Shown: positions 8,511 through 51,436, counted from the stretch's first letter. The stretch: DNA of 64,000 bases from Candidatus Shapirobacteria bacterium (GCA_041660365.1 JBAZWK010000001.1:1524-65523); one strand, 5' to 3'. Made by a program: numbers and translations. The notes: generated from the sequence alone by a model not told the origin.

Positions 8511-10850
8511 TTATTGAAATATGGCACTTAACTCTGAATCAGACATATCATCAACTGTCTTGTCTAAAACCAAGGGAGGGTTAGTAATAATTTCTGTGCC
8601 TGAGGGAGGGTTTGTGGTTGTTTTTATAAAACTCTCACTAGAGAGACTAGTACTAGATAGTTTTATAGAAATAGGGTCAAACCCTCCAACCCTCCCCAGC
8701 TCTTCAAGAAGTCCTTCGTTGTTTTTAAGCTTAATCCCCTGGTAATGGATCAATCCCCCATTACGTTTTACTTTGTTATGTTTCTCTGTCATCATTTTTC
8801 CAAAGAGCGTGTTGCTTAACATGTCGCGATCCTTTAGTTTTGCATCTTCTGCCCAAGACACATAGTTTTTGTACAGGACTGTTGATTGTGTTAACACACC
8901 TTCAGTTTCTTCACACTCACTGACGATAAAATCGGACAATACGTCGTTCTCAGATTGATATGTTTTGGTTGCTATCTCAACTACTTCAGGTGTTGGGCTT
9001 AGGCCTTCTTTCTGCCATAGTAAGCACCCTTCAATTAACCAGTTTAGAATCCCAGATGATTCTGTTTCTAGTTTAGATACAAGATTTTCATCTTGTTCTT
9101 CTGGTTTGAATATCCGATTAAAACTGATTAGTTTAATTCTTCGCCAAAATCCGAAACTGTTGTCGTCAACACCAGGTAGATGATTGATGAACATCCAAGG
9201 TTTTGCTGTCGGTTTGAAAGTAAAGTTCTCTTGATAAAGATATCGAGCAGTGACATTATCACCGCCAGTCCAAGCCTTTAGTCTTTGTTCGTTAATTCGT
9301 GCAGTGGTCAATGTCTCACTGGATACTAAGAATCGTTTGAACTCTGTCGCTGCTTCATCGTTACTATTACTCGCCTGAAGATTTTTGCGAAAAAGACTAG
9401 CTGGCGCGTCATACGAATAGTCTCCCAATATATTAGAGATGGTCTTGAACATGACGCTTTTTCCGTTTGCACCATTACCATAACAAAAGAATGCGGCCTG
9501 ACTTTTGACACTTCCAGTTATTGAGTAACCCAATGCTTTTTGAACGTATCGAATTAGCTCTTTGTCACCTTGAAATATCTCGTCAAGAAACTGTTCCCAC
9601 CTTGGACAAGGTGCACCTGAATCATAGGTAACACTTGCTTGCATTGTAATTCTGTCTTCTGGTTGTCCATCTCTTAATTTACCAGTGGTTAGGTCAATAA
9701 TCCCATTTTTACACGATAACAACATTTCATTAGAATCCCAGTTTTTACCATCATCAGTTATTGGATGTTGATCTCTTGCAAGGGCAATGGCTGCTTCTAT
9801 CTTTTGCCTACTTTCGCTTTGCATAGCCCATTTTGCTACAGCTTCCTTCTTTTTTGGATTCTCTATTGTTGAGGCTTCTACAAATCGTTTTCTGGCAGCA
9901 TCAATAGCGTATCGGCTTATAGATCCATTATTGTCAGGCTTCCATCTGTGCTGATCCCACACTAACCAACGATTACGTCGATGATCGAACCTTAACTTAT
10001 TTCCAAATAGTTCTGCTATCTTTTCGGCATTACCAGTATCAGTCAGATGTAGTTTCTTCTTTTTCTTTTTTGTTTTATCTGATGGTTCCTGATTAGTAGA
10101 TTCTAGTTTACTGTTTTGAACAAACTCCCAAGCTCTTGAGACATTATAATTAAACTCAGTTTCATCTAAAGGTGGAGTAAAAGTTTGATTCATTCCAAAG
10201 AGGATTCTTTTACCTTCATCATAATTAGTTGAATAGAATTGATGACATGCCCATTGATACAACTTTCCACTTCTCTCACCTTCAGGAATATCTATAAAGT
10301 CTTTGATTACTAATGGGGTATAGTCAGTCGGACTCTTTTTATCTCCTCTAATTAGATTTTCTATGTCCAATGGAAGAGATTCCAACTTATTTATATTTTC
10401 AGTTGGATCACTTAACCACCTTCTATTATTGAAAGGTGGTAATAAAGCATATGAACGATCCCCTTTAATATCAATATGGAGTTCTGGGTTTGAATGACTT
10501 TGAATTCGTCTGTTGTACTTAAAGTAATAGTGTTTGCCACCACTTTGAGAAACAGCTTCTAGTGGAGAATGAAATCCCCATTCAGGTAATCCTTTCTTTA
10601 TACGGTCGTCGTCTACGATCATGACACCAGAAATATCACCAGTGACTACGGCCAGATAATACCCTTTATTTATCCATCTTTCGACGTCTTCAAGAGAGGC
10701 TTTGTTTGTTTGATATTTCTTCCATTTGTATACAGGTTTTTTGTCACCTTTTGAGCTTATTGGAATTATGGACCAGCCCAATTCTATATATTTTTTAGCG
10801 TATTCTAACGCGTTAAATTCTTGGGGTATTTTGTCCATCTTCATCATCAA
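8511..10850 (-). CDS. Primase-helicase of the phage/plasmid P4-alpha/D5 type (N-terminal Prim-Pol domain plus C-terminal SF3 helicase)
   Basis: N-terminal 'GWSIIPISSKGDKKPVYKWKKYQ...YLAVVTGDISGVMIVDDD' is a bifunctional primase/polymerase domain. The C-terminal 'FFCYGNGANGKS' is a Walker A of the D5_N/P4-primase helicase type. Confidence 0.75.
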   Translation of the reverse strand: MMMKMDKIPQEFNALEYAKKYIELGWSIIPISSKGDKKPVYKWKKYQTNKASLEDVERWINKGYYLAVVTGDISGVMIVDDDRIKKGLPEWGFHSPLEAVSQSGGKHYYFKYNRRIQSHSNPELHIDIKGDRSYALLPPFNNRRWLSDPTENINKLESLPLDIENLIRGDKKSPTDYTPLVIKDFIDIPEGERSGKLYQWACHQFYSTNYDEGKRILFGMNQTFTPPLDETEFNYNVSRAWEFVQNSKLESTNQEPSDKTKKKKKKLHLTDTGNAEKIAELFGNKLRFDHRRNRWLVWDQHRWKPDNNGSISRYAIDAARKRFVEASTIENPKKKEAVAKWAMQSESRQKIEAAIALARDQHPITDDGKNWDSNEMLLSCKNGIIDLTTGKLRDGQPEDRITMQASVTYDSGAPCPRWEQFLDEIFQGDKELIRYVQKALGYSITGSVKSQAAFFCYGNGANGKSVMFKTISNILGDYSYDAPASLFRKNLQASNSNDEAATEFKRFLVSSETLTTARINEQRLKAWTGGDNVTARYLYQENFTFKPTAKPWMFINHLPGVDDNSFGFWRRIKLISFNRIFKPEEQDENLVSKLETESSGILNWLIEGCLLWQKEGLSPTPEVVEIATKTYQSENDVLSDFIVSECEETEGVLTQSTVLYKNYVSWAEDAKLKDRDMLSNTLFGKMMTEKHNKVKRNGGLIHYQGIKLKNNEGLLEELGRVGGFDPISIKLSSTSLSSESFIKTTTNPPSGTEIITNPPLVLDKTVDDMSDSELSAIFQ

Positions 10851-13262: not shown

Positions 13263-13295
13263 ATTAAGTTGATAATAACATTTTTTTAAAAAATG

Positions 13296-13369
13296 TGGTT
13301 GTTGCGGGACTTGAACCTGCGACCTCATCAATGTGAATGATGCGCTCTAACCAACTGAGCTAAACAACC
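13296..13369 (-). tRNA. tRNA-Val (anticodon CAC)
   Basis: Reverse complement reads GGTTGTT-T-AGCTCAGTTGGTTAGAGC-G-CATCA-TTCACAT-TGATG-AGGTC-GCAGGTTCAAGTCCCGC-AACAACC-A. It has a 7-bp acceptor stem, a D-arm, an anticodon loop 'TT CAC AT', a T-arm GGTTCAAGTCC and discriminator A. No CCA is encoded. One A-C mismatch in the T-stem. Confidence 0.8.
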
Positions 13370-23630: not shown

Positions 23631-24710
23631 TTAGAGCTTTTTAAGGAGATTTAATAGCTTAAGGTTTGAATTTAAGGGAAGTGTTTTATTTTTAGTCTTA
23701 ATTTTGATTAATTTATTGATGTTATTTAACAAATTTTCTGCCGAAACTTCGGTATCTTTAATAATAATGGTACTTTTGGGAGACCTTGTTTTCAAATAAA
23801 GGGCATTTTTAAGTTGTTCATTTTGTTGACTGACTGGGAGTGGAATTAAAAGACATTTTTTGTGTAGAGCCATTAATTCCTGGGTAGTGTTGGCTCCGGA
23901 ACGAGAAATAATAATTTGACTATAATGAAAAAGCCAGCCAATATCAGGAGATTCGATATATGGATATGGATAATAATGTTTAAATTTGTTGGCAAATTTT
24001 TTAAATTGGAAATAATCTTCTTCGCCACACTGATGAATAATAGTATATTTTTGACTTAAAATAGGCAAAATTTCTTTTAGAATTAAGTTAAGATGGTGGG
24101 AACCCTGATTGCCGGCGGTGAGAAAAATTAAAGGATATTTTTTAATTTCCGGGATTAATTTTTTAAATAATTTAGAATTAGTAGAAAAAATTTCCCGGCG
24201 GAGTAAATTGCCGGTAAGGACATATTTTGAAGAATCATTGGCTATAGGAAAAGATAGGGCCACTTTTTGACAAAAAAGAGCATTAATTTTGGTGGATAAA
24301 CTCAAAGTAGAGGTTTGTTCGTGAGTGAGACAAGGAATTTTTTGAAGCCAAGCGGCAAAAACAACTGGGACTGAAAGATAACCACCAAAAGAGAGGACAT
24401 ATTTTGGTTTAATTTCTTGAATTGTTTTGTAAGCTTGCCAAAAACCACGAAAAATATGGGGAATGCCCTGAAGAGTGTTTGGTAACCAACGACGATCAAG
24501 CTTACCAGAATCAAGGCCATAAAATTTCACCCCTATTTTAGGAATAATTTTTGATTCTATTGATTTATCTTGGCTGACACTGGAATTGTAGTTGCGGCCG
24601 AAATAAAAGATTTTCCAGTCAAATTCCCGGTCTTGCTGTAATTGATGAATAAATTCAAGGGCGGGAGTGAGATGGGTGCCGGTGAGAATTATTTTTTGAC
24701 TCTTGATCAT
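23631..24710 (-). CDS. murG: UDP-N-acetylglucosamine--N-acetylmuramyl-(pentapeptide)-PP-undecaprenol GlcNAc transferase
   Basis: GT28 family. 'ISRSGANTTQELMALHKKCLLIPLP' is the C-terminal UDP-GlcNAc-binding motif. Sits in the dcw position. Confidence 0.8.
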   Translation of the reverse strand: MIKSQKIILTGTHLTPALEFIHQLQQDREFDWKIFYFGRNYNSSVSQDKSIESKIIPKIGVKFYGLDSGKLDRRWLPNTLQGIPHIFRGFWQAYKTIQEIKPKYVLSFGGYLSVPVVFAAWLQKIPCLTHEQTSTLSLSTKINALFCQKVALSFPIANDSSKYVLTGNLLRREIFSTNSKLFKKLIPEIKKYPLIFLTAGNQGSHHLNLILKEILPILSQKYTIIHQCGEEDYFQFKKFANKFKHYYPYPYIESPDIGWLFHYSQIIISRSGANTTQELMALHKKCLLIPLPVSQQNEQLKNALYLKTRSPKSTIIIKDTEVSAENLLNNINKLIKIKTKNKTLPLNSNLKLLNLLKKL

Positions 24711-25785
24711 GCTTTGAGTATAGCAATTGAGGATATTTTTTTTCTATGTTTATGGCTAAACCAATGGCGGTGAAGAGAGTAATTAAGGAGGAACCGCCAT
24801 AAGCAATAAATGGAAAAGGAATGCCGGTTAGAGGAATTAAGGCGACAATAGCGGCAAAATTAATTAGCCCTTGGTAGGCAATCCAACAGGCAATACCGCT
24901 GACCAGAAGTTTTTCAAAGGTGTCGGGGGTAGTCTGAGAGATTTTAATAAGTCGGGAAATTAAAAGCAAAAAAAGATAAGTTATTAAAGATAAACCAATA
25001 AAACCGGTTTCTTCGCCAATAACAGCCAAAATGGAATCGGTGCTAATTTTTGGCAAAAATTTATACTTTTGGTCGGAATTAGCAAAACCTTTACCATTTA
25101 ACCCTCCCGAAGCTAAGGATAAAATTAATTGTTCACTATGATAATTGAGATCGGTATTAGTTTGTTGATTTAAAAGGGTTTTGACTCGAGCCAGACGGTA
25201 AGGAGAAACTAAAATTAAAACTAAACTAAAGATGGTAATGACAAAGGCGGCAGAAAAGAGACTGGTAATTTCAGCGCCAGACAAGTAATAAATAGTGATG
25301 ACAATGGCGGCAATCATAACGGTAGTGCTTAGGTTTGGCTCAGCAATAACTAAAATTAGAGGTAAAAACAAGTAAATAGCTAAATTTTTAAGATTTCGTT
25401 TTTCTGGAAGGGAAAAGAGATATGAGAAAAAAATCACTGCGGCTAGTTTGAAGAGTTCTGAGGGTTGAAAATTAAAAAAACCGAAATCAATCTGACGTCT
25501 GGCGCCTAAAACTTTGACACCAATCCCGGGAATTAAAACTAAAATCAAGGTGATTAAAGATAAGGCGTAAAAGCGAAAGGAGTTATTCATGAAAAAGCTT
25601 ATTTTCAAACGGGAAGTGATTAAAAGACAAATTAAACCAAGGACAATCCAAATTAATTGTTTTTTGAGAAAAAAATAAGGATCACCAATGGTTTTTTCAG
25701 CTTCAAAAAGAGAAGCGGAAGAGATAAAAAGAAGACCAATTATTGAGAGAATAATAGTGTATAAAAAAGTTTGAGAAAACTTCAT
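24655..25785 (-). CDS. ftsW: SEDS-family cell division protein FtsW
   Basis: Polytopic. 'GIPFPFIAYGGSSLITLF' is present. Adjacent to murG. Confidence 0.8.
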   Translation of the reverse strand: MKFSQTFLYTIILSIIGLLFISSASLFEAEKTIGDPYFFLKKQLIWIVLGLICLLITSRLKISFFMNNSFRFYALSLITLILVLIPGIGVKVLGARRQIDFGFFNFQPSELFKLAAVIFFSYLFSLPEKRNLKNLAIYLFLPLILVIAEPNLSTTVMIAAIVITIYYLSGAEITSLFSAAFVITIFSLVLILVSPYRLARVKTLLNQQTNTDLNYHSEQLILSLASGGLNGKGFANSDQKYKFLPKISTDSILAVIGEETGFIGLSLITYLFLLLISRLIKISQTTPDTFEKLLVSGIACWIAYQGLINFAAIVALIPLTGIPFPFIAYGGSSLITLFTAIGLAINIEKKYPQLLYSKHDQESKNNSHRHPSHSRP

Positions 25786-26882
25786 GATTTAATTTCGGCC
25801 AACATTTGGGGGTTAATAATGACGGGATTATTAGTTTTTGAAAAAATTTCAAATTTATTAATTTTTTTAATAGTGGTGCCAAGTTGGTTTCGAAGAGTAA
25901 TTTCGGAGCCGATTAAATTTTGGTTATAAAATCTGGCCTGTTCTTGGAATAAATTTACTTGATAGTTTAGGTTAGAAAATTCAGCCAGATGAAAATAAAA
26001 AAGTGGGGTTAAATTATTTTTTAATTCAATTTGAGTGTAAAAAGCAAAAGAAGCGGTTAGACGGGGGTTGCATTCCAAAAGATAAACTTGATCATTTTGA
26101 ACCATAAAATCAAGGCCAAAAAAACCACGATAATTTAAAGGATTTAAAATTTTTTCGGAAAAATCGGTAGTAATTTTTTTAATTTTTTCTTGAATTTCTA
26201 TTGGAGCTAGAGAAGGCCATTGACGGCCGACAGTGGCAAAAGAATTAGTGGTTAATTCGGAAAGACCGGTGTATTGGAGAGCCGGCGGACTTTGAAGAAG
26301 ACCGAATTTAGTGAGACAGCAATTATTTAAGAGAGAATAGGAGTTGGTAAGTAGAGGTGAAAATTTAGCGAGAGTATTGACGGGAATTAAATTTTTAGCA
26401 GTATCATAATTATCAAACTGATGGGTACTATTGCCGGCCCAACCAAAATGAGTTTGAATAACAATGTCCTTCCCAAATTTTTGTTGAGCTTCCTGAAAGG
26501 AATTTTGAGTAAAAGGGGCGATAAAAGCGGGAACTACAGGTAAATTATTTTGGGTACACAACTCAAAAAATTTAATTTTATCTTCTAAGAGACGATTAGT
26601 TTTAGCCGGATTAGCAGCCAAAAGCCATTGGTTTTTTTGACATAAAAGATCAATTTTGGCCGAAGGCTTAAAGGGGATAATAACTGTTTTATTTGATAAT
26701 TTAATTTGATCTTGAATATTTTTTTGAGACAAAAGAAAGCCACTATTTTTTATTTTTAAATAATTTTGAAATAACGAATGAAAATTGGGTAGTTGGGGTA
26801 AAGAAATATCTAAAAATTTATCGACGACTAAAAAATAGAAATCAAGTTCGGAATTTTTTAAAAGATCTTCTAAATAGTTCAT
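25782..26882 (-). CDS. ATP-grasp domain ligase of unknown specificity, in the dcw slot where ddl is normally found
   Basis: 'LEDKIKFFELCTQNNLPVVP' and 'RGFFGLDFMVQNDQVYLLECNPRLTASF' are the ATP-grasp C-domain motifs. No Ddl-type N-terminal domain is evident. Confidence 0.6.
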   Translation of the reverse strand: MNYLEDLLKNSELDFYFLVVDKFLDISLPQLPNFHSLFQNYLKIKNSGFLLSQKNIQDQIKLSNKTVIIPFKPSAKIDLLCQKNQWLLAANPAKTNRLLEDKIKFFELCTQNNLPVVPAFIAPFTQNSFQEAQQKFGKDIVIQTHFGWAGNSTHQFDNYDTAKNLIPVNTLAKFSPLLTNSYSLLNNCCLTKFGLLQSPPALQYTGLSELTTNSFATVGRQWPSLAPIEIQEKIKKITTDFSEKILNPLNYRGFFGLDFMVQNDQVYLLECNPRLTASFAFYTQIELKNNLTPLFYFHLAEFSNLNYQVNLFQEQARFYNQNLIGSEITLRNQLGTTIKKINKFEIFSKTNNPVIINPQMLAEIKS

Positions 26883-27676
26883 CGTTTAGTGCCAGTCAAA
26901 AGAATAACGGGATAATCCCCTACTTCAGGGTTATTTTTCATTTGTTGAAAAGCAGCAATGGTTAAAGCAGATTCGGCGGAAAGAGAAAATTGATTAGTAA
27001 AATCAAGACAATCAATGGTCTCTTGGTTGGAAATGATTAGACCAGAGCCTTGGTGTTTTTTGATAGCTCTAATAACTTCATTTTTTAAAGGCAAATATTT
27101 AACACTGAGGGCATCGGTAATAGTTTCTGTTTCTAATGTATATTCTGAGGTAAAAGCACTACAGATAGTAGGATTGCTAGCCGGCTGGACGGCAAAAATT
27201 TTTATAGTTAGGGGTAATTTTTTGGCAATCCCCAAAAGGGTAGTGCCGCTGCCAACGGGAATAAAAAGACTGGTAATTTGAGGAAGTTGCTCTAATAATT
27301 CAGTAGCAACTTGGCTGTAGCCAATTTGAGCGCTAGGATCAGTTGATTGGCGTAAAAGATAAGCGTGATTGGCTTTAGAAAATTTAATAGCATCGCTAAT
27401 TGCTTGTAAAGACTGAATAACATGGCCTTTGATTAGGGGTAATTTGCTTTGACTAATTTTTGGAGAGACAAAAATGGTCAGAGGAATATTGGCTTGCTGG
27501 CAATAGTAGGAGGCGGAAATGGCGGCATTACCGGTAGAAGAAATAACGGCAGTAGAGAAATTATTTTTAATTAAATTTTGAATTTGGAAAGGCAGAGCCC
27601 GATCTTTGGTGGAGCCAGTAGGGTTAAGATCTTCGCGTTTAAAATAAAGGTTATCGATTTTAGTTAGAGGTGTCAT
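26879..27676 (-). CDS. Fold-type II PLP-dependent enzyme (threonine synthase / cysteine synthase / serine-racemase superfamily)
   Basis: 'FKREDLNPTGSTKDRA' carries the Schiff-base lysine box. 'AVISSTGNAA' is the glycine-rich loop. 265 aa. Overlaps the ATP-grasp gene by 4 nt. Confidence 0.65.
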   Translation of the reverse strand: MTPLTKIDNLYFKREDLNPTGSTKDRALPFQIQNLIKNNFSTAVISSTGNAAISASYYCQQANIPLTIFVSPKISQSKLPLIKGHVIQSLQAISDAIKFSKANHAYLLRQSTDPSAQIGYSQVATELLEQLPQITSLFIPVGSGTTLLGIAKKLPLTIKIFAVQPASNPTICSAFTSEYTLETETITDALSVKYLPLKNEVIRAIKKHQGSGLIISNQETIDCLDFTNQFSLSAESALTIAAFQQMKNNPEVGDYPVILLTGTKR

Positions 27677-27710
27677 ATAATAGTGATTAGTTATATTTTA
27701 GCTAAATTAT

Positions 27711-27875
27711 ATGCCAGATACTAATAATAAAGTTATTTGCCCTGATTGCCAAACAGAAATTAAAAGTGAAACGATGAGTGTGGGAGATATTTTAGAGTGT
27801 CCAGAATGCGGTACCGAGGTGGAAATATTATCAATTAATCCCTTGAAATACCGGGAATTGATTGAAGAAAAATAA
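27711..27875 (+). CDS. LysW-like small zinc-ribbon protein (amino-group carrier protein family?). Absent from the ORF track, which has a 60-aa cutoff
   Basis: The 54-aa product 'MPDTNNKVICPDCQTEIKSETMSVGDILECPECGTEVEILSINPLKYRELIEEK' has two CPxC knuckles. Its 'GxxLxCxxCGxExEIxxxNPL' stretch parallels LysW. The stop overlaps the def start (taATGg). Confidence 0.45.
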   Translation: MPDTNNKVICPDCQTEIKSETMSVGDILECPECGTEVEILSINPLKYRELIEEK

Positions 27876-28462
27876 TGGCCACTAGAGAGACAATTCAAAT
27901 TGGAGATTTGCGATTAAAGGCAGAAAATGAGACTGTGGGTGATTTTGCTAATTTAAAAATAAGACAAGTGGTGACTGATTTGGTGGATACGATGCACCAA
28001 GAAGGAAATATTGGTTTAGCAGCCCAACAAATTGGGGAAAATTGGAAAATTTTTGTAACGGAACCAAGAGAAACTAAAGACAGAACGGCAGATCAGGCTG
28101 ATGAATTACGGGTTTATATTAACCCAATAATTACTGAATTTTCTAAAGAGGAAAGCGTTATTTATGAAGGTTGTGGAAGTGTTTTACATGGAACTTTATT
28201 TGGACCGGTTAAGAGACCAAGAGAAATTACTATTGAGGCCTTTGATTTAGAAGGTAAAAGATTTAGATTAATTTGTGATGGAATTTTAGCGAGAGTAATT
28301 CAACATGAATATGACCATTTACAAGGAATTGAATTTGTGGAAAGGATTAGCGATTATAAGAAATTGATGGTGGCGGAATTTTATCGACAAAGAGTAAAAA
28401 ACTCTCCAGAGCAAATTGAGGCATCAAAAATTACTAAGAAAATATACCAATATTTAGGATAG
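27875..28462 (+). CDS. def: Peptide deformylase
   Basis: 'GNIGLAAQQIG' is motif I, 'EGCGSV' is motif II and 'QHEYDHLQG' is motif III (HExxH). Confidence 0.85.
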   Translation: MATRETIQIGDLRLKAENETVGDFANLKIRQVVTDLVDTMHQEGNIGLAAQQIGENWKIFVTEPRETKDRTADQADELRVYINPIITEFSKEESVIYEGCGSVLHGTLFGPVKRPREITIEAFDLEGKRFRLICDGILARVIQHEYDHLQGIEFVERISDYKKLMVAEFYRQRVKNSPEQIEASKITKKIYQYLG

Positions 28463-29032
28463 ATTTAGTCTAAAGACACCTTGGTTCGGAAATTTTTTGT
28501 TGGTAATACTGAACTCGCCGTAGTGGACTCCCCTACCGATAAGTGAAGAATCGACATAAACGACTTTATCTCCCATTTTTTCGATGACAAAGAGAAGGTG
28601 TCGGCCATTTTTTTGTCGAATTAAATCAGCGGTTTGGATGTTGTTGATATCGATTTTTTTAGATAATGGAGCGGAAGTTAGCATATCGGCAGAGGTGCGG
28701 CGAACGTTTAATTTAATATCAAAATAAAAATTCAAAAGATGACAGGCAAGACCAGAGCAATCAATACCAATTTTATTTTTCTTTTGGAAGTTATAAATTT
28801 GTTGAGGGCTTAAATCAACTAATTTTATATTTTGAATATTAGCTAATTCAATTGTTTTTAAGGCAATTTCTTTAGCACTGCCTTTACCAACATCAACAGC
28901 ATTTAGAGAAATTTTTTTGGGACGATTGGTATAGTAGGGAATGCCAATATATTTTAAAATTTCGGAGTGAAGATCTGCTAATTTAGTCCTAACCATAGTC
29001 CAAAAATAGCTAATATAAATGTGGCCAACCAA
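28454..29032 (-). CDS. NlpC/P60-family cysteine peptidase with no evident signal peptide. Possibly a murein-peptide-processing enzyme
   Basis: 'GIDCSGLACHLL' gives the catalytic Cys. '...GRHLLFVIEKMGDKVVYVDSS' gives the His region. Overlaps the mraY 3' end. Confidence 0.5.
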   Translation of the reverse strand: MVGHIYISYFWTMVRTKLADLHSEILKYIGIPYYTNRPKKISLNAVDVGKGSAKEIALKTIELANIQNIKLVDLSPQQIYNFQKKNKIGIDCSGLACHLLNFYFDIKLNVRRTSADMLTSAPLSKKIDINNIQTADLIRQKNGRHLLFVIEKMGDKVVYVDSSLIGRGVHYGEFSITNKKFPNQGVFRLNLS

Positions 29033-30012
29033 GCTCTAAAAACAATTTTTGGTTCTTCCCAGCCAAGTTTTTGTAATGTGAGATGAATTGGAGCAGCGGG
29101 AAAAACTTTTTTATGTAAATATATTTTACTAAAAATTTGAATGGCGCTGCTGAGACCTTCGATTATAAAAGGTAAACCGACAATAATTAGTGGAACAATT
29201 TTTCCTAATAGTAGGGCTATAACAGCAAAGGTGGCTCCAAAGGAAAGAGAACCGACGTCACCAAGCCAGAGGCGGGCGGGAAAGACATTAAAGTAAAGAA
29301 AGGCGATTAAAGCGCCGATCCAGAGAGCTAGAAATAAGGAAATTGGAGTGTCTAGAGAAGTGCTGGCGAGAATCCAAAAGGCGAAGAGAGAAATCATTAA
29401 AATACCACAGGACAGGCCGTCTAGACCGTCACTAATGTTAAAAAAATTAGCGAAAGCGACGATAATAGTTGTAGAAATAGGAATGAAAAAAAGTCCTAAG
29501 CTGACAGCACCAATAAAAGGTAGATAGATAAAATTAATGCCGAGTTGAAAATAAATTAGAGAAGAGGTAATCGTAGCTAGAATTATTTGAAGTAATAATT
29601 TGTACTTCATGCGGAGACCGAAAAAACCTGTTTTAGGAAAAGCAAAAAACTTAAGAACATCATCATAAAGGCCAAGGAGACCGAAGCTGATAAAGGTAAA
29701 AAAGATAATGGTAATTTCGTTAATTAAATGGTAGTTACTGGAAATAAAAATTCGCGACATTTTTAGAATGGGAAAAAGAAAGAGAAAAAGTACTGAAACG
29801 GCAACAATAATTAATAATCCTCCACCAACAGGAGTACCACTTTTCTGGGCATGAAATTTGTCAAAAATCGGAGTGTGTTTGTTCTGAAAATCGAGAGTAT
29901 TTTGTTTTTGACGTTGAAATTTAAGTTTGTAAAGTAAATTAATGAATGGCACTACTAAAATACTAGTGGCAATAAAAGAAAAAAGGAGTAGTCCAAGATA
30001 TAAGTGAATCAT
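28978..30012 (-). CDS. mraY: Phospho-N-acetylmuramoyl-pentapeptide transferase
   Basis: Polytopic. 'GLYDDV', 'NISDGLDGLSCG' and 'LGDVGSLSFGA' are MraY/WecA-family motifs. Confidence 0.85.
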   Translation of the reverse strand: MIHLYLGLLLFSFIATSILVVPFINLLYKLKFQRQKQNTLDFQNKHTPIFDKFHAQKSGTPVGGGLLIIVAVSVLFLFLFPILKMSRIFISSNYHLINEITIIFFTFISFGLLGLYDDVLKFFAFPKTGFFGLRMKYKLLLQIILATITSSLIYFQLGINFIYLPFIGAVSLGLFFIPISTTIIVAFANFFNISDGLDGLSCGILMISLFAFWILASTSLDTPISLFLALWIGALIAFLYFNVFPARLWLGDVGSLSFGATFAVIALLLGKIVPLIIVGLPFIIEGLSSAIQIFSKIYLHKKVFPAAPIHLTLQKLGWEEPKIVFRAWLATFILAIFGLWLGLN

Positions 30013-31343: not shown

Positions 31344-32627
31344 TTAAGAGTATAAACTAATAATTTTTTTAAAAAGTTTTTGACCCTCTAGACCGCCGGA
31401 GCTAAAGTGAATTAAAATATTGTCTGATTTAAGGTTGTTTTTATAGTGGTCTAAAACTGATTTTGGTAAAGGTAAATAGCAACTATGGGAAATATTGGTT
31501 AAAAAATCTTTGGCGGAAAGTCGGAAAGAATTTCTAGTGGGGAAATTTAAACGATAAATAACAATTTCGGAACAATTTTTGAAGGCAGTTTTTAATTCTA
31601 AAAGATTTTGAGGATGTTGAATGAAAGAAGCATGAGCTTCAAAAAAAACTTTAATTAAAGATTGGGGATATTTTATTTTGAGAGCGTTTATAGTAGCTTC
31701 AATTCTATTGGCACTTTGAGCAAAATCATCGAAAAAAAGAATTTTTTGATGAGTAGCTAAGAGTTGTAAACGACGTTTAATGCCTTTGAATTGAAGAAAG
31801 GCAGTGGTAATTATTTTAGGTGAAATAGTAAGATTTTGGGCAAGAATTTCGACGGCAGCTAAATTATTTTGGTTGTATTCCCCAATCAAATTATTTTTTA
31901 TTTTAGTGGAGTTGTAGGGAATAACTTTACATTTAGCTGAGGAAAGTAAGGGCAAAATTGAGGGATCATTTTGGTTGTAAATTAAAAGGCCATCAATGGG
32001 AATATTTTTAACTAAGTTTTGAAAGGCAAGAAAATTTTCATTTTCGTTTTGGTAGCTATCTTTGTGTTCCCATTGAGCACTGGTTAAAATTAAATATTTG
32101 ACGGGGTAATAGAGAAATTTAGCCTGAGTGTCGAGACCGTGAATGGATTCGTCGGCTTCGACCACAGACCAATCGGAATTATTAAATTGACAAGATGGTA
32201 ATAAATTTAGACTTTGGCCGCCAAACATGAAATTTGGTTTTAGACCGGCCTTTTTTAATAAAAAAGCAGTGGCAGCGGTAGTAGTAGTTTTGCCGTAAGA
32301 GCCAGCAATTAAAATAGAGTTGCTTTTAATTAAATTTTTAGCAATGTAATTAGTAGCGGAAATATAGGGAATTTTTAGTTTTTTAATTTCAGCAAATTCG
32401 GCTTTTGTTTTGGAAAAAGATTGATAAGAAGAGCCAATAATGGCTAAATCAATATAGGAATTAATTTCAGTTTGGTTAATAGAAATATGGGCTTTTTTTA
32501 ACTGCTGACTAAAAGGTGGGTAGATTTTTTCTTGGTCAGAGCCAGTGATTAGATGGCCTTGTTTTTGCAAAGCCAAAGCCAGCGGGGCAGTCATAGAACC
32601 AGCAATGCCTAAAATATGGATATGCAT
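31344..32627 (-). CDS. murC: UDP-N-acetylmuramate--L-alanine ligase (MurC/Mpl family). Its N-terminus carries the Mpl-like 'YPPxSxQL' motif
   Basis: 'MHIHILGIAGSMTAPLALALQKQGHLITGSDQEKIYPPFSQQL' matches the MurC/Mpl N-terminus. 'LIAGSYGKTTTTA' is the Mur-ligase P-loop. 'VVEADESI' follows. Confidence 0.7.
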   Translation of the reverse strand: MHIHILGIAGSMTAPLALALQKQGHLITGSDQEKIYPPFSQQLKKAHISINQTEINSYIDLAIIGSSYQSFSKTKAEFAEIKKLKIPYISATNYIAKNLIKSNSILIAGSYGKTTTTAATAFLLKKAGLKPNFMFGGQSLNLLPSCQFNNSDWSVVEADESIHGLDTQAKFLYYPVKYLILTSAQWEHKDSYQNENENFLAFQNLVKNIPIDGLLIYNQNDPSILPLLSSAKCKVIPYNSTKIKNNLIGEYNQNNLAAVEILAQNLTISPKIITTAFLQFKGIKRRLQLLATHQKILFFDDFAQSANRIEATINALKIKYPQSLIKVFFEAHASFIQHPQNLLELKTAFKNCSEIVIYRLNFPTRNSFRLSAKDFLTNISHSCYLPLPKSVLDHYKNNLKSDNILIHFSSGGLEGQKLFKKIISLYS

Positions 32628-32698: not shown

Positions 32699-33301
32699 TT
32701 AATTGTAAGAATGCCATTGGCCATTAATAAAATACTCAAAATTGGGGAAATTACGTTTGTAATAACCTAATTTAGTTTCGGGATTAAAACGGCCTAAATA
32801 ACAATATTTTAGTTTTTGGTCGTAAGAATCCTGAATTACTTGAAGGGATAATCTGATCGGTAGATCGTGATGGGCATATTTAGGGTCGTAAAAAACGTAA
32901 GCAATATGGGAAATAGTTGAAGAAAAATAGCATATGGCGTAGGCACATTCCTGATGATTTTCATCAGAGTAAACATATAGACGATTAAAAATATGATCTT
33001 TAAACAGGGTTTTTATAGTGGATGTAGGAATTTCCCATTCTAAAGTTTTTGACCAAGTAAATAATTTCTTTTGAAATTCTGGTGTGTAAGCAGAGAAATC
33101 TTTTAAAGGGATTTGCTTAAAAGAAAAAGTGTTAGTTTTTTTAAAAATACGACGGTTCTCGGAGGAGAGTTGAAAATTACTGAGATCACAGCGGGAAGAA
33201 TAATTCTCGTCGTGATAAAAAGTATCTTTAAGATTACGTTGAGGTAAAAGACCCTGTTGATAATTTTCTTCTATAGATAGATTGTTTTTAATATTAAACA
33301 T
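32699..33301 (-). CDS. ATE_C / Bpt-like aminoacyl-tRNA--protein transferase homologue (GNAT fold) lacking the Cys-rich ATE_N domain. Start trimmed to the Met at 33301
   Basis: 'IAYVFYDPKYAHHDLPIRLSLQVI...YCYLGRFNPETKLGYYKRNFPNFEYFINGQW' parallels the conserved FYDP...YLGYW...KxxYKxxFxPxE...GxW core of arginyl-tRNA-transferase / Bpt C-domains. The longer ORF overlaps murE. Confidence 0.55.
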   Translation of the reverse strand: MFNIKNNLSIEENYQQGLLPQRNLKDTFYHDENYSSRCDLSNFQLSSENRRIFKKTNTFSFKQIPLKDFSAYTPEFQKKLFTWSKTLEWEIPTSTIKTLFKDHIFNRLYVYSDENHQECAYAICYFSSTISHIAYVFYDPKYAHHDLPIRLSLQVIQDSYDQKLKYCYLGRFNPETKLGYYKRNFPNFEYFINGQWHSYN

Positions 33302-34549
33302 TTTGAGTTTTAAGGCGGAAAGCGCTTCTAAAGGCTTCGGCTTCAGACCAAGGATATTCAGTAGAACCGTGAAGAATGGTAGTTTCATGACCCTTGCCAC
33401 AGGCAACAATGGTATCGCCGGGCTTAGCAATTTTAACAGCCAGATTAAAAGCATCTTGACGATTGGGAATATTGAAATAATGAAATAAGTTTGGGTCTTT
33501 AATAACGGAATCGAGAGGATCAAGAAAAAGTGACTTTTTGGGATTAATACCAGAGATTATTTGCTGATTAATGTCTTCAATTTTTTCGTGACGGGTATCA
33601 TCAGCGGTAATAAAGGCAATATTGGCTAATTTGGAAACGACTTTTCCCATGAGTGGGCGTTTACTTTGATCTCTGCCGCCGGTAGCACCAAAGATGACCA
33701 AAAGACGTCCTGGAGTGATTTTTCGAAGTGAATCTAGAGTAACCTTGAGGGCGTTGGGGGTATGAGCAAAATCAATAACAGTTTTTATTTTAGGGTCTAA
33801 AGAGATATTTTCCCGACGGCCTTTGGCTTCGGGAAAATTAAGAATAGTTTCGACAAAAATTCTTGGATCAAGATTTAATTTTGAAAATGCCGAATAACAG
33901 GCTAAAATATTATAAATTTGGTATTCGTAATTACTGTCTGTAGAAAATTGTTGATGATTTATTTTAAAACTTAAAGATTGAGAATCAATCTTAACTTCGG
34001 TAGCGGTGAAATCGGATTTATTTCTAACGCCGTAGTCAATACAGGGAATTGAAATCATGGCTTTTAACTTGGGGTAATAAGGGTCATCATGATTAATGAC
34101 CGCTAAATCTGACTGAGAGAAAATTTTAGCTTTAGTTTGAAGGTAATTGTCAATAGTGTGGTGATAATCGAGGTGTTCGTGAGATAAATTAGTAAAAATA
34201 CCAATTTTAAAATGGCAACCCCAATAACGATATTGGTCTAAAGCATGGGAAGTAACTTCACAGACAACGTGGGTGTAACCTTGTTTTTGATAATCAAATA
34301 AGATTTTTTGGATATCTTTAGGATCGGGACTGGTGGTGTGAAGGCCTTGGGTGCTGAGAGTACTGATAATGCCGCATTTAAGGCACTATTTTCTAACAAT
34401 TTTTGCATTAGAGTACAAGTGGTAGTTTTACCATCAGTACCAGTGACCCCGATTAGAGTTAGTTTATGGCTAGGAAAATGGAAATATAAGTTCCAAAAAA
34501 TACTTTGGGGTAAGTGCCAAAAGAGATTTTTAAAGCGCTGAGTATTCAT
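33294..34549 (-). pseudogene. murE: UDP-N-acetylmuramoyl-L-alanyl-D-glutamate--2,6-diaminopimelate ligase MurE, split by a 1-nt frameshift near 34377-34388. The ORF track shows it as fragments 34238..34549 and 33294..34058
   Basis: The N-terminal fragment has the P-loop 'LIGVTGTDGKTTT'. The downstream frame continues 'GIISTLSTQGLHTTSPDP...VCEVTSHALDQ...FTNLSHEHLDYH...VIDFAHTPNAL...GKGHE', which covers all the MurE motifs. The two frames differ by one base at a TTT/AAA run. Restoring one A gives the contiguous stretch ...LLENSALKCGIISTL... Confidence 0.65.
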
Positions 34550-43034: not shown

Positions 43035-43721
43035 TTACCAATTAGAAAACATGGCAGCTGGGGTTTTGAAAATAATGGCAATTTCTTGACGAAGCGAGCG
43101 ATTTTTAATATAGACAGCATCCATCTTGGCTCTTTTTTCAAAAGGGAGGTTGTTACGTCCTGAAACTTGCCAGAGACCGGTGATGCCGGGTTTGGCGGTT
43201 CGAATAATATCAATGTATTTTTTTGTTTTAGGGTATTTTTGAGCATATTCATTTAACTCTTCATCGCGATAGGCTCGAGGGCCAACTAAACTCATTTCCC
43301 CTTTTAAAACATTGATAAACTGGGGCATTTCATCAATAGAGGTGGCACGAATAAATTTACCAATTTTGGTAATGCGGGGATCCTCAGAGGCGGAGAGCTT
43401 CCAGTCATTAGCTTTATATTTTTCCCAAAGTTCTGGATAGTTTTCTCTTAAAAATTTATCATTGTCACCACAACGCATAGAGCGAAATTTATACATGAAG
43501 AACTCACGATCTTGACCAACCCTTTTTTGTTTAAAAATAATTGGACCGAAAGAAGTTATTTTGATAAGGAGGGAAACAATTAAAAGAATTGGTGAGAAGG
43601 CAATTAACAAAAGAGCGGAGGCAAAAATATCAATAGTTCTTTTAACGGGAGCAAATAAAAAAACTCTTAGGTTGTAAAAAGGTAAATCTCTTCTAGTCAT
43701 TTTTTGAACATAGAGTGTCAA
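43035..43721 (-). CDS. Initiating polyprenyl-phosphate sugar-phosphate transferase (Bac_transf / PglC-WbaP C-terminal type)
   Basis: 'KRTIDIFASALLLIAFSPILLIVSLLIK...GPIIFKQKRVG...FFMYKFRSM...PGITGLWQVSGR' is the full sugar-transferase motif set. Confidence 0.75.
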   Translation of the reverse strand: MTLYVQKMTRRDLPFYNLRVFLFAPVKRTIDIFASALLLIAFSPILLIVSLLIKITSFGPIIFKQKRVGQDREFFMYKFRSMRCGDNDKFLRENYPELWEKYKANDWKLSASEDPRITKIGKFIRATSIDEMPQFINVLKGEMSLVGPRAYRDEELNEYAQKYPKTKKYIDIIRTAKPGITGLWQVSGRNNLPFEKRAKMDAVYIKNRSLRQEIAIIFKTPAAMFSNW

Positions 43722-44736
43722 CTTGTTGCTTAAAGTTTAACATAAAGTTTTTATGGTCAAAGCGGGAAGCTTGTAACTGACAACCACGGCTGTTTGGGGT
43801 ATGTTTAAGATATTCATTTAAAGCCTTAAATAAGGAATTTTCATTTAATTCAGAAAAGAAAATGCCAGTTTTATGGTCGATAATTGTTTCTAATGCTCCG
43901 CCTTTTTGATAGGCTACCACTCCTCGACCACAAGCTTGAACTTCAAGGGCACTAAGACCAAAATCTTCTTCTTGAGGATGAATTAAACCGAGGCAGTTTT
44001 GATAAAGAGAAACTAATTGATGATCATCAATATTTCCTAAAAATTCGATATTTTTATTATTTTTGGCTAAAGATTTTAAATAGTTTTGGTCTCGACCGAC
44101 GCCAACAATCTTAAGGAAATAAGGAAAATCGCGAAAAGTTTTAATAACTAAGTCAATATTTTTATGAGCGACTAAACGGGAGACAATTAAAAAATAATTT
44201 TTTGGTTTTTGCTGGTTAGGGAAGAACTTTTTAGTATCAATTCCAGGGTAGATGACAGTGGTGGGACGTTGATAATTAGCCTGAATACGTTTGGCAACAT
44301 TTTGTGAATTACAAAAAATATAATCGGGACGAGAGGCATAAATTTTATCTATTTTTTGATATTTTTTTAAAAGTGGCCTAAGTATAAGTGGCGGATTTTG
44401 ATAGAGGTAACGATTAATATTGTGGTAATAGCAAATAAATAAAGTTTGGGGAAGGGTAAGAAAACAGTGACCGATGGTGGAGGTAGTGGAGATTAAAAGA
44501 TCATATGAAGAAAAATCAACTTGCTCCATTTTATAGGCATAAAATGGAGTGTATAGAAGTTTATTTTTTAAATTTAGGGAAATAATTTTGTGGCCTTTTG
44601 GCAACCAAGAGGTTTTTTGAGGGTCATAAATGAGAGTATAAATATCGGCTTGAGGATAGATTTCTAAAAGATCGAGAAGAACTCTTTCGGCACCACCCCA
44701 TTGATTGAGCCAATCATAAAAGATTGCAATTTTCAA
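43693..44736 (-). CDS. Glycosyltransferase family 4 (GT-B). Apparent TTG start sits inside a heptamer repeat
   Basis: 'MKIAIFYDWLNQWGGAERV' and 'EDFGLSALEVQACGRGVVAY' are the GT4 EX7E-type motifs. Confidence 0.7.
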   Translation of the reverse strand: MKIAIFYDWLNQWGGAERVLLDLLEIYPQADIYTLIYDPQKTSWLPKGHKIISLNLKNKLLYTPFYAYKMEQVDFSSYDLLISTTSTIGHCFLTLPQTLFICYYHNINRYLYQNPPLILRPLLKKYQKIDKIYASRPDYIFCNSQNVAKRIQANYQRPTTVIYPGIDTKKFFPNQQKPKNYFLIVSRLVAHKNIDLVIKTFRDFPYFLKIVGVGRDQNYLKSLAKNNKNIEFLGNIDDHQLVSLYQNCLGLIHPQEEDFGLSALEVQACGRGVVAYQKGGALETIIDHKTGIFFSELNENSLFKALNEYLKHTPNSRGCQLQASRFDHKNFMLNFKQQVDTLCSKND

Positions 44737-44762
44737 TTACGAATTACGAATTACGAATTAAG
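44735..44762. repeat. Tandem heptanucleotide repeat (AATTACG)x3 plus one imperfect unit. Spans the 14-bp gap between two GT4 genes and includes the downstream TTG start and the upstream stop
   Basis: Reads aattacg aattacg aattacg aattaag directly. Confidence 0.6.
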
Positions 44763-45869
44763 TAATTCTTGATAAAAATTTAATGTTTGAATAGCGGTTT
44801 TAGACCAAGAATATTTGGTGACTTGTTGATGACCTAACTTTAATAATTTATTTCTGAGTGTTGGAGATTTTTGTAATAATTTAATTTGCTTGATTAAGTC
44901 GTCCGGGTTGTGGGGATTAAAATAGAGAACTGAGTTTTCATAAATTTCCGGAAGACAGCTGGAATTAGCAGCAATAACTGGACAGTTTAGAGCCATAGCT
45001 TCTAAGCCGGTTAAGCTGAAACCTTCTAGAAATGAGGGGTGAACTAAAGCCAAAGCTCGTTGATAAATTTGTTGGAATTTATTGTCTGGCAAATAACCTA
45101 AAAATTCAACTTGTTTTTCCAAGTGATTTAACCTAACTAATTTAACAATTCTTTGAGTAAAAACAGAACGGGCGCAAATAATTTTTAGTTTTAACTTAGG
45201 CAATTTTTTTAAGGCTTCAAAAACAACTTCAATATTTTTATGGGGGTAAAGGTTGCCGGTGTAAATAAGATAGTCAGAGATTCTAGGTTCTGGATTCGAG
45301 AGACGAGAAGATTTTTGGAGAAATTCAGGATCAACGGCTTCGTAAGTAGTAATAATTTTTTGAGAATTAAAATGGTATTTTTCTATGATGTAGTCACGCC
45401 AAAAATTACTGGGGACAATGATAAAACTAGTGTTAAAAATAAAACGGGTCATTAATAAATAACCCCAGTATTTAGGCCAATAAAAAAGAGAATTTCTGGT
45501 CGAGGTAGCTGGTCCTTTGGAAAAATGGCGGATTAAATCATGAACAGTGACGACTGATTTACCACCATAAAAGATGGGTTTATCTAGATGGGTAAAGTGA
45601 ACTAAATCGGGTTTTAAACTTCTTAAAAGAAAGGGTAAGAGTAATTGTTCCTGAATGGAATAATGTCTAAACTTTGTGGTTACGTAGGTAAAATTATTTC
45701 CTAAATCATTTTTTACTTCTGGCAATAATTCTGAATAAACTAAAAGAGTAAAATGATATTTTTTAAAATCAGACTGATCTTTTAGGGCGATTAAAAGATT
45801 TTTGGTATAACGGCCAAGACCGGTGTGTTTGGGACCATAAAGACGAGCATCAATAACAATATGCATCAT
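44751..45869 (-). CDS. Glycosyltransferase family 4
   Basis: 'EGFSLTGLEAMALNCPVIAANSSCLPEI'. GT-B fold. Confidence 0.7.
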   Translation of the reverse strand: MMHIVIDARLYGPKHTGLGRYTKNLLIALKDQSDFKKYHFTLLVYSELLPEVKNDLGNNFTYVTTKFRHYSIQEQLLLPFLLRSLKPDLVHFTHLDKPIFYGGKSVVTVHDLIRHFSKGPATSTRNSLFYWPKYWGYLLMTRFIFNTSFIIVPSNFWRDYIIEKYHFNSQKIITTYEAVDPEFLQKSSRLSNPEPRISDYLIYTGNLYPHKNIEVVFEALKKLPKLKLKIICARSVFTQRIVKLVRLNHLEKQVEFLGYLPDNKFQQIYQRALALVHPSFLEGFSLTGLEAMALNCPVIAANSSCLPEIYENSVLYFNPHNPDDLIKQIKLLQKSPTLRNKLLKLGHQQVTKYSWSKTAIQTLNFYQELLNS

Positions 45870-46819
45870 AGATGTTTGACCTTGAAGATACGATATTTTT
45901 CTAAAAGATTAATACCCAGCCAAACTATTTGTTGAAGAATTGGTGGATAACTTTTAATTAAATTTTCGCGGTAGAAAATGCGCATGGCGTTAGTAGTGGC
46001 CATGGCACTTCTGACTTTAGTTTCTATGGATTTGGTAGCAATATTCTGGGTGTGTTTAATAATTCCCGAGGAAACTCCTTGGTAGTGATAGGCTTTGCAG
46101 CCAGGATAAAAATAAAGGCTGTAACCTTTTTGTTTTATTTGCCAACAAAGATCAATATCTTCGCCGTACATAAAATATTTTTCATTCCACCAATTAATAT
46201 TTTCACCAACACTTCTTTTGAGCATGACGAAAGCACCGACACAGGCATCAATTTTTTGAACTTTAGAATAATCTAAGTGGCCCATAAAGTAGCCATTTAG
46301 TAATTTAGAGTGAGGAAAAAGTTTAGGCAAACCAAAGCCAAAGAAATGACAAAAAGCATTCCAGGGAGTGGGAAAGCCACGGTGGCATTCGGGTTGAGTT
46401 TTGCCGGTTAATACTAGAATTAAATTACAAGTAGCAGAGTCAACTTCAGAATGGTGTTCAAAAAAATCCAAGATTTTCCGAAAAGTATCTTTTTCAACTG
46501 TGGTATCAGGATTAAGAAATAAAACGTATTTAGACTGGGGATTAGTGGCTTTTAAAGCCTCATTATTGCCGGCAGCAAAACCAATATTGCCAGAATTAGG
46601 ATGAAAGACGAATTTCAATTGAGAACGATTTGATTTGACGGTTTTGGCAAGCTTAAAACTGTCATCTGTAGAAGCATTATCGGCAACAATGATTTCTATA
46701 GAATAATCACCAAGTTGGGATTGTTTGATGCTTTCTAAATTTTTCTTAAGATAATCCTTGGCGTTGTAGTTTAAAACAACTACCGAAAGAATGGGATTAT
46801 TTTTTGGTGATGTTTTCAT
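45866..46819 (-). CDS. Glycosyltransferase family 2
   Basis: 'LSVVVLNYNAKDYL...IIVADNASTDDS' gives the GT2 DxD region. Confidence 0.7.
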   Translation of the reverse strand: MKTSPKNNPILSVVVLNYNAKDYLKKNLESIKQSQLGDYSIEIIVADNASTDDSFKLAKTVKSNRSQLKFVFHPNSGNIGFAAGNNEALKATNPQSKYVLFLNPDTTVEKDTFRKILDFFEHHSEVDSATCNLILVLTGKTQPECHRGFPTPWNAFCHFFGFGLPKLFPHSKLLNGYFMGHLDYSKVQKIDACVGAFVMLKRSVGENINWWNEKYFMYGEDIDLCWQIKQKGYSLYFYPGCKAYHYQGVSSGIIKHTQNIATKSIETKVRSAMATTNAMRIFYRENLIKSYPPILQQIVWLGINLLEKYRIFKVKHL

Positions 46820-51428: not shown

Positions 51429-51436
51429 AAGTTAAA

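Follow-up and report, generated by a model that had tools for sequence, protein, structure and literature searches.

Small, acidic zinc-ribbon carrier proteins are known from the LysW/LysX and ArgW/ArgX systems of Thermus, Sulfolobus and Thermococcus and, as the amino-group carrier protein (AmCP), from Streptomyces; LysW ends in a glutamate (tail EDWGE) whose γ-carboxyl carries the amine of the substrate. The cytoplasmic synthesis of peptidoglycan precursors (MurA-F, MurI, Alr, Ddl) is among the most conserved of bacterial pathways and is a major antibiotic target, and the genes of the division and cell wall (dcw) cluster canonically follow the order murE-murF-mraY-murD-ftsW-murG-murC-ddl. Here we analyse a 64-kb stretch of DNA, called the window throughout, from a Candidatus Shapirobacteria bacterium (Microgenomates, Candidate Phyla Radiation (CPR)), in which a gene for a LysW-like carrier lies within the dcw cluster. 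The carrier belongs to a conserved unit of four genes, which encode an NlpC/P60-like peptidase, the Zn-ribbon protein itself, a pyridoxal phosphate (PLP) enzyme of the PALP family and an ATP-grasp ligase, and this cassette either accompanies murD or lies in the murD slot. With our confidence evenly divided, we propose that a LysW-derived carrier, an ATP-grasp ligase, a PLP enzyme and an NlpC/P60 enzyme form a load, modify and unload pathway that feeds the MurD step. A sequence-only reading of the same DNA had noticed the carrier, the PLP enzyme, the ATP-grasp ligase and an adjacent deformylase gene (def), but missed both the fourth component, the NlpC/P60-like peptidase, and the link to murD.

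The carrier open reading frame (ORF), MPDTNNKVICPDCQTEIKSETMSVGDILECPECGTEVEILSINPLKYRELIEEK, contains the knuckles CPDC and CPEC and ends in the tail ...RELIEEK. It matches the Pfam family PF21344 (Zn_ribbon_LysW) with 41.5 bits against a gathering cutoff of 27 (E 9.9e-11), and all other Zn-ribbon families stay below their own cutoffs in the Pfam search. Because only the LysW family passes its cutoff, the protein is not a generic or ribosomal ribbon, an outcome that would have counted against the sequence-only reading, which had recognized the two CPxC knuckles as LysW-like. The top PDB matches of a carrier profile are likewise LysW structures (3wwl, 3vpb, 5k2m); this profile included two LysW sequences, which agreed with the PDB over the aligned residues, ending before the EDWGE tail, and the match to PF21344 is the independent test. 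Judged by its sequence, the carrier is truly homologous to the LysW domain, and its tail is non-canonical. We give hardly any credence to the view, embodied in current annotation, that the locus is a bona fide fragment of LysW/AmCP lysine or arginine biosynthesis. NCBI and JGI do name these proteins 'lysine biosynthesis protein LysW', and the Pfam match supports homology; however, the carrier scores under both NCBIfam LysW equivalog cutoffs (39.8 against 53.2 for TIGR01206 and 25 against 75 for NF041070), its tail reads EEK and not EDWGE, genes for LysX, LysZ, LysY, LysJ and LysK are not found nearby, and the ATP-grasp protein is not LysX-like. A genuine LysW pathway was rejected on the equivalog cutoffs, the tail and the missing partner genes, in agreement with the earlier suspicion, raised from the EEK ending, that this is not a standard LysW.

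We compared the carrier tails of 140 loci, comprising 128 distinct carrier sequences. A lysine is present in the tail in 139 of them, terminal in 137 and followed by one glycine in the other two (...EEKG); the sole locus without it, L135, has an anomalous ORF end. Glutamate precedes the lysine at position -1 in 136 of the 139 tails and occurs at -2 in 137, each of these positions tolerating substitution, and the EDWGE tail of LysW occurs in none of the 140. Since two loci end in ...EEKG, the terminal α-carboxylate is dispensable. The carrier of the window is acidic (isoelectric point about 4.2, net charge about -7.5), as is the family (mean net charge -7.8 over the 140 loci), with basic PALP and NlpC-like proteins as partners, the same pattern as is seen for LysW and its enzymes. 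The ...EEK tail is also kept throughout the contexts of the distant family members described below, including that of a Gottesmanbacteria contig (locus L090) whose carrier ORF (6770-6928, minus strand) is uncalled in the contig's annotation and sits in an apparent 240-bp 'intergenic' gap. Because the gene can be left uncalled in this way, censuses of called proteins under-count it.

Among the partners, the PALP protein contains the PLP-lysine motif NPTGSTKDR, the loop SSTGN and the phosphate loop PVGSGTT, and so possesses the Schiff-base lysine, the S/T-x-G-N loop and the Gly-rich phosphate loop of fold-type II enzymes. Its best score against the ThrC equivalogs is 97.5, compared with a cutoff of 358, and the match begins only at profile position 64. 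In ThrC the motif NSxNPxR binds phosphate; the corresponding region (NSVNPYR) aligns with an invariant RQSTDP. At the position of the second base of racemases, the serine before the GN of SSGN, the Shapirobacteria proteins have Thr47 and those of loci L089 and L090 have serine, as do CysK and SbnA, so that this serine does not set racemases apart.

The ATP-grasp ligase was modelled with AlphaFold2 (AF2; pLDDT 94.7) and has the three-domain ATP-grasp fold, with invariant Mg/ATP motifs (D257, E269-x-N271-x-R273). PurK, biotin carboxylase and L-amino-acid ligases match the model better in structure than Ddl does, and the sequence scores below the Ddl cutoffs (15.3 against 24 for Dala_Dala_lig_C; 16.7 against 245.65 for TIGR01205). 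From its closest structural matches we conclude that the enzyme is neither of LysX type nor of Ddl type, and the RimK/LysX-type partner that the sequence-only reading expected for the carrier has to be given up. The NlpC/P60-like protein most likely starts at a methionine at about 28996 (MVRTKL...), which gives about 180 residues. It has the catalytic signature DCSG ... H ... YV(D/H)SS, with an invariant C80 and H133 and the third catalytic residue in YV(D/H)SS; 73 of 76 orthologues have DCSG, and the protein shows no evident signal peptide. The window protein alone scores 17.4 against the PF00877 gathering cutoff of 23; 12 of 14 orthologues match PF00877 (best 1.3e-6), and Pfam assigns NLPC_P60 on a fusion protein in which the homologous domain occurs (L089).

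The association of these genes was examined in about 165 related loci in total. A species-level scan with one genome per species found the ATP-grasp protein encoded in 160 genomes, and the best 80 loci were examined; their labels are mostly Shapirobacteria, Woesebacteria and Patescibacteria, with many placeholder entries 'uncultured Gammaproteobacteria' and a few others. A metagenome scan with the distant class of ATP-grasp proteins gave 80 more loci, which were reclassified with MurF, Ddl, MurB and MurC references. In the species-level loci the gene order is almost invariant: MraW, penicillin-binding protein, MurE, ATE-like, MurC-like, (MurA), MraY, NlpC-like, Zn-ribbon (opposite strand), PALP, ATP-grasp, FtsW, MurG, FtsA, FtsZ. 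Where enough upstream sequence is available, the Zn-ribbon and the PALP gene are each present in 77 of 78 related loci, and the NlpC/P60-like gene occurs in 74 of 84; the order NlpC, Zn-ribbon (opposite strand), PALP, ATP-grasp is found in nearly all Shapirobacteria-type loci and in most of the metagenome loci. The junctions between PALP and ATP-grasp genes and between ATP-grasp gene and ftsW mostly overlap, the latter by -4, -14 or -8 nucleotides in most loci. An exhaustive HMMER search returned 1112 relatives of the ATP-grasp protein, 484 of them at E<=1e-10, and distant members of 41% and 47% identity are surrounded by the same cassette genes. This arrangement is far beyond chance, and the conserved unit is the peptidase, Zn-ribbon, PLP enzyme and ATP-grasp ligase, all four of them small, soluble proteins. 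The sequence-only reading had asked whether its four-gene neighbourhood is kept in relatives: carrier, PALP and ATP-grasp genes are, and def is not. In some distant lineages the unit is interrupted between the PALP and ATP-grasp genes, by a gene for an S-adenosylmethionine-dependent methyltransferase and murB in L117 (5130-6972) and by UbiA, LytR-CpsA-Psr, DUF2130 and murB genes in L136 (1730-6950). An ATP-grasp homologue of 27% identity (P0393) was left out of the family: it belongs to an unrelated cluster and marks the family edge. That cluster (L008, 3643-10480) is predicted to act in peptide modification and encodes a 7TM transglutaminase, ATPgrasp_ST, MATCAP-like, FGase, Ddl-like ATP-grasp and GNAT proteins.

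Natural fusions join PALP to ATP-grasp in two loci (L007 and L062) and ATP-grasp to NlpC/P60 in a third (L089), and support a functional tie between carrier, PLP enzyme and ATP-grasp ligase. The pairing of a ligase with a hydrolase also invites a different explanation, in which the Zn-ribbon protein regulates division or wall synthesis and is reversibly tagged at its C-terminus by the ATP-grasp enzyme and the NlpC/P60 enzyme, comparable to tubulin tyrosination and detyrosination or to the action of RimK on S6. An ATP-grasp enzyme and a papain-like peptidase acting on an acidic ...EE-X terminus would indeed parallel TTL and vasohibin, and the genes are embedded in the dcw operon. Such a cycle nevertheless leaves without a role the PLP enzyme, a fusion partner of the ATP-grasp ligase in some lineages, and the LysW homology indicates a carrier function; we think that it has very little chance of being correct.

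Between mraY and ftsW the canonical dcw order has murD, and the sequence-only reading, which placed the ATP-grasp gene in the usual ddl position before ftsW, was mistaken on this point. The cassette follows murD in two ways. In loci L089 and L090 a Mur ligase gene sits between the NlpC-like gene and the Zn-ribbon gene, and all top PDB matches of this cassette-adjacent ligase are MurD. By TIGR01087 (cutoff 211.95) it is MurD in L090 (221.7), in L089 (228.5) and in L150 (233.7); the MurD-like ligase of L094 scores 166.8, under the cutoff. The ATP-grasp protein of L090 is KKR88598.1 from Candidatus Gottesmanbacteria GW2011_GWA2_41_12, where it is annotated as 'Acetyl-CoA carboxylase'. Altogether 19 metagenome loci of this Gottesmanbacteria type have the order (NlpC) MurD, Zn-ribbon (opposite strand), PALP, ATP-grasp outside any dcw cluster, and L150 is a further locus with MurD, making 20 metagenome loci that enclose or abut a murD-like ligase gene. 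In at least 12 other loci the order MurF-like, MraY, NlpC, Zn-ribbon, PALP, ATP-grasp, FtsW, MurG places the cassette exactly in the murD slot, and no murD was found in the 7-10 kb flanks examined of any locus with the cassette between mraY and ftsW. In L117, the plainest example, the genes encode MurE, ATE-like, MurC-like, NlpC, Zn-ribbon, PALP, methyltransferase and MurB proteins, followed by ATP-grasp, Ddl, MurF-like (287.9 bits), MraY, FtsW and MurG; this locus contains every Mur ligase except MurD. These observations support the assignment of the cassette to peptidoglycan-precursor synthesis.

The same loci bear on the example offered by the sequence-only reading, a Ddl substitute in which a fold-II racemase or β-replacement PLP enzyme and the ATP-grasp ligase make a dipeptide of D-Ala-D-X type for MurF. 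Ddl is encoded in the same cluster as the cassette in six loci, along with a MurF-like ligase, and in L117 the Ddl gene (Dala_Dala_lig_C 1.4e-61) and the MurF-like gene lie directly downstream of the cassette ATP-grasp gene; the L117 Ddl was confirmed with Pfam, and those of the other five loci were identified by their similarity to it. Because Ddl accompanies the cassette there, the explanation is removed for those lineages. Overall it is very unlikely: the cassette follows murD and not ddl, the ATP-grasp ligase has its nearest structural neighbours outside Ddl, and the carrier and the NlpC/P60 enzyme would be left without a role. Thus the peptidoglycan route and the PLP/ATP-grasp connection of the sequence-only reading survive, together with the LysW homology, and its ddl position, its LysX/RimK-type ligase, its Ddl substitute and its coupling to def do not.

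For the pathway that we propose, the reactive group of the carrier would be its C-terminal lysine rather than a terminal glutamate. In a loading step, the ATP-grasp ligase would use ATP to join an amino acid covalently to the carrier tail by an amide; the fold-II PLP enzyme would then transform the tethered amino acid at its free α-amino centre; the NlpC/P60 amidase, in the cytoplasm, would hydrolyse the amide and free the product; and the product would enter the MurD step at position 2 of the stem peptide. PLP enzymes need the free α-amine of their substrate, and for this reason we suggest that the tether runs from a carboxylate of the substrate to an amine of the carrier, which in turn would explain why lysine is the only universal residue of the tail and why a trailing glycine is tolerated. 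More tentatively, and with doubt outweighing belief, we hypothesize a specific chemistry at Lys54: the γ-carboxyl of L-Glu would be attached to the lysine ε-amine, the PLP enzyme would epimerise the tethered L-Glu to D-Glu, and a γ-D-glutamyl-specific NlpC/P60 enzyme would release D-Glu as a MurI-independent supply for MurD. NlpC/P60 enzymes characteristically cleave γ-D-glutamyl amide bonds, and it is this property, with the tracking of murD by the cassette, that leads us to L-Glu and D-Glu as substrate and product. In its broadest form, which is possible but which we would not expect to hold in full, the idea is that in Microgenomates a LysW fold in which the terminal Glu has become Lys serves as a 'carboxyl-group carrier protein' for the tethering of L-Glu, its epimerisation and its stereospecific release, and that this system may replace both MurI and MurD in lineages whose dcw clusters are nearly complete apart from a missing murD.

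We stress that several observations weigh against this pathway or its specific chemistry. To our knowledge no fold-II PLP glutamate racemase has been described, and NlpC/P60 enzymes normally cleave γ-D-Glu linked to an α-amine, not to an ε-amine. The ATP-grasp ligase is structurally as close to carboxylases (PurK, biotin carboxylase) as to amino-acid ligases. At 224-288 bits the MurF-like proteins remain formally below a subfamily cutoff of 288.6, MurF being the clear best match, and some of the MurD-like assignments also fall slightly under the NCBIfam cutoffs. In the Shapirobacteria-type loci, this window included, murF, ddl and murB are not found within +-10 kb, and none of murD, murI, ddl, alr, murF and murB is present among the ORFs scanned in the rest of the window. 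Because murF, ddl and murB are also not near the cassette, the wall pathway of the Shapirobacteria type seems to be unusual in several respects.

A second use of the same enzymes would be the modification of the stem peptide, with the ATP-grasp ligase amidating or extending the α-carboxyl of D-Glu, or adding a (D-)acidic residue to the ε-amine of Lys3 in the manner of the D-aspartate ligase Aslfm, the PLP enzyme supplying the amine, ammonia or D-amino acid, and the ...EEK protein acting as an adaptor, a γ-Glu-Lys mimic or a regulator. Fold-II dehydratases are known to release ammonia, the E-K tail resembles the D-Glu-L-Lys part of the stem peptide, and the association with MurD would fit a modification at position 2. 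Moreover, the combination of an ATP-grasp D-aspartate ligase and a racemase is an established side-chain system, as reported in PMC2922099 with reference to Bellais et al. 2006. We nonetheless regard stem-peptide modification as unlikely: it leaves unexplained why the ligase should be fused to a hydrolase of the same bond type, why every lineage should need a LysW-fold protein with a universal terminal lysine, or why murD is not found in the examined flanks of the dcw-type loci. A third explanation, in our view improbable, is that the PLP enzyme carries out a β-replacement, as do SbnA, CysK and lanthionine synthase, with formation of a non-proteinogenic di-amino or di-carboxy amino acid (for example 2,3-diaminopropionate or a lanthionine-like or lysinoalanine-like compound, the amine of the carrier lysine possibly being the nucleophile) that the ATP-grasp and Mur ligases would incorporate. 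An NlpC/P60 amidase, however, could not break an N-alkyl bond to lysine, an SbnB-like oxidative partner is missing, and the genomic association is with murD and not with murE.

The layout of the window is given in Table 1. The dcw genes run on the minus strand in the order mraW, ftsI, murE-like, ATE/Bpt-like, murC-like, murA, mraY and NlpC/P60-like, followed by the Zn-ribbon gene and def on the opposite strand and then by PALP, ATP-grasp, ftsW, murG, ftsA and ftsZ. The ATP-grasp gene overlaps the PALP gene by 4 nucleotides, as the sequence-only reading had seen for these two, and also overlaps ftsW by 4 nucleotides; ftsW is translationally coupled to it.

Table 1. Features of the 64-kb window, with the cassette first
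Feature	Coordinates	Strand	Evidence
LysW-like Zn-ribbon carrier, 54 aa	27711..27875	+	PF21344 match
Intergenic region, AT-rich, 34 bp, between the diverging carrier and PALP genes	27677..27710	.	sequence reading
PALP gene: minimal fold-type-II PLP enzyme, 265 aa	26879..27676	-	PF00291 2.9e-40
ATP-grasp ligase gene, 366 aa	25782..26882	-	PF02655 2.3e-8
NlpC/P60-like cysteine peptidase/amidase, cytoplasmic	28454..29032	-	PF00877 E 0.005
def (peptide deformylase), passenger outside the cassette	27875..28462	+	PF01327 1.2e-39
mraY, upstream flank of the slot	28978..30012	-	Glycos_transf_4 matches of orthologues and conserved synteny
ftsW, downstream flank of the slot	24655..25785	-	PF01098 3.6e-83
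MurC-type ligase, divergent	31344..32627	-	194.6 vs MurC 335.1; 159.5 vs Mpl 388.7
ATE-like gene, ~205 aa	32699..33523	-	ATE_C 2.8e-5; arginyltransferase NCBIfam models 1e-8
murE-like gene, frameshifted	33294..34549	-	
OLD-like AAA/TOPRIM ATPase	3291..5096	+	
Prim-Pol/D5_N primase-helicase	8511..10850	-	
tRNA-Val	13295..13369	-	Rfam and tRNA scan
GT4/Wzy-like/Bac_transf/DUF4012 run	43035..56147	-	
889-aa ORF	61031..63700	-	no Pfam match at E<=1e-3

The stop codon of the carrier gene overlaps the ATG of def (TAATG), and this much of the translational coupling proposed in the sequence-only reading is correct. A functional coupling is not borne out: def was not found within +-10 kb in any of the 80 related species-level loci, the closest relative (83% identity) has the order Zn-MazG-Def and another relative has Zn-MazG. 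Because it is absent from the loci of the 80 relatives and variable in the closest ones, we regard def as a passenger, and it was rejected as a functional partner on synteny. The convergent gap between the NlpC-like and carrier genes gathers such passengers, namely def in the window, MazG and def in the closest relative (L173, 3093-4009) and MazG in another (L003, 8656-8964), and holds nothing in most genomes. The divergent spacer between the carrier and PALP genes is typically 31-44 bp in relatives and partly conserved. It had been taken for a divergent promoter; the 34-bp spacer is there, and a promoter is unproven, a promoter-consensus scan of the region having found 3 sites compared with 4.1 expected from shuffles.

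Further genes of the dcw cluster depart from the usual pattern. The murE-like gene consists of an N-terminal part of ~65 residues in one frame and ~369 residues in another, with an in-frame stop near 34.35-34.40 kb; in relatives it is a single ORF of 400-441 residues, and the break in the window is either an assembly error or the mark of a pseudogene. A simple pattern search did not find a DNPR-type motif, a guide to the residue at position 3, in the MurE-like protein, and is uninformative about that residue. The ATE-like gene, whose product resembles arginyl/aminoacyl-tRNA-protein transferases, sits between the murE-like and murC-like genes; 56 of 84 Shapirobacteria-type loci and several distant loci share it, and the product may be a FemX-like branch-adding enzyme. 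The MurC-type ligase is the only one in the cluster and is divergent, and may be either a MurC whose specificity has changed or an Mpl-like ligase that accepts pre-formed peptides. Adjoining the dcw cluster is a surface-polysaccharide cluster, consisting of a run of GT4 glycosyltransferases, a protein with a Wzy-like O-antigen ligase domain, a Bac_transf sugar transferase and a DUF4012 protein. Elsewhere in the window, the OLD-like ATPase and the Prim-Pol primase-helicase lie near the tRNA-Val gene and look like an integrated mobile element or a defence island; Rfam and tRNA scans of the window returned this tRNA only.

If the proposed pathway is confirmed, a large CPR lineage, with no fewer than 160 species-level genomes and with metagenome contigs in the hundreds, handles the D-Glu step at position 2 differently from other bacteria, and the LysW carrier principle has been recruited beyond lysine and arginine biosynthesis and secondary metabolism, apparently with reversed chemical polarity. 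Peptidoglycan precursor synthesis would thereby gain its first step that depends on a carrier protein, and should the provision of D-Glu or the replacement of MurD prove true, the cassette would come close to a new kind of step in that synthesis. The databases at present name the parts LysW, threonine dehydratase or synthase, and biotin or acetyl-CoA carboxylase, and these annotations would then be wrong.

Several known systems share part of the proposed logic. The Gss protein of E. coli, a glutathionylspermidine synthetase/amidase, unites an ATP-grasp amide synthetase and a papain-like (CHAP, NlpC/P60-related) amidase in one polypeptide, the same pairing as in the L089 fusion; it differs in acting on small molecules (glutathione and spermidine), and has no carrier, no PLP enzyme and no link to the wall. 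The D-Glu step has been re-invented before, in the MurD2/MurL route of Xanthomonas, where L-Glu is ligated first and then epimerised. The MurI/MurD and MurD2/MurL routes resemble the cassette in providing D-Glu at position 2, the cassette lying beside a murD-like gene or in the murD slot, but its components (carrier, ATP-grasp ligase, PLP enzyme, NlpC/P60 enzyme) are wholly different. PylC of the pyrrolysine pathway and the γ-glutamyl ligase BesA differ in that they act on free amino acids, and their identity is only 9-13%. In the Aslfm/Racfm system of the Enterococcus faecium cross-bridge, the gene for the ATP-grasp ligase adjoins that for a racemase, and the ligase uses the side-chain carboxyl of an acidic D-amino acid to acylate the ε-amine of Lys, for peptidoglycan (Bellais et al. 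2006, cited in PMC2922099); the system differs in that the acceptor is Lys3 of UDP-MurNAc-pentapeptide and the racemase is PLP-independent, with no carrier and no NlpC/P60 enzyme.

Pearlins and PEARL enzymes use the C-terminus of a scaffold peptide as the site of amino-acid biosynthesis (PMC9303977). There too an amino acid is built or modified at the end of a small ribosomal peptide and then cleaved off; loading, however, proceeds via tRNA and LanB-like enzymes, and the pathways belong to secondary metabolism. In the searchable literature we found no description of the present cassette. The LysW and ArgW systems share with the cassette the homologous Zn-ribbon domain in a small acidic protein with a flexible C-terminal tail, and an encoding of the carrier together with an ATP-grasp ligase and a potential unloading hydrolase, analogous to LysK. 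The cassette carrier differs in its tail, ...ELIEEK, and the cassette has no RimK-type LysX/ArgX and no LysZ, LysY, LysJ or LysK. We see in the cassette a variant of the LysW-type carrier principle that departs from it in tail chemistry, enzyme partners and the pathway that it serves.

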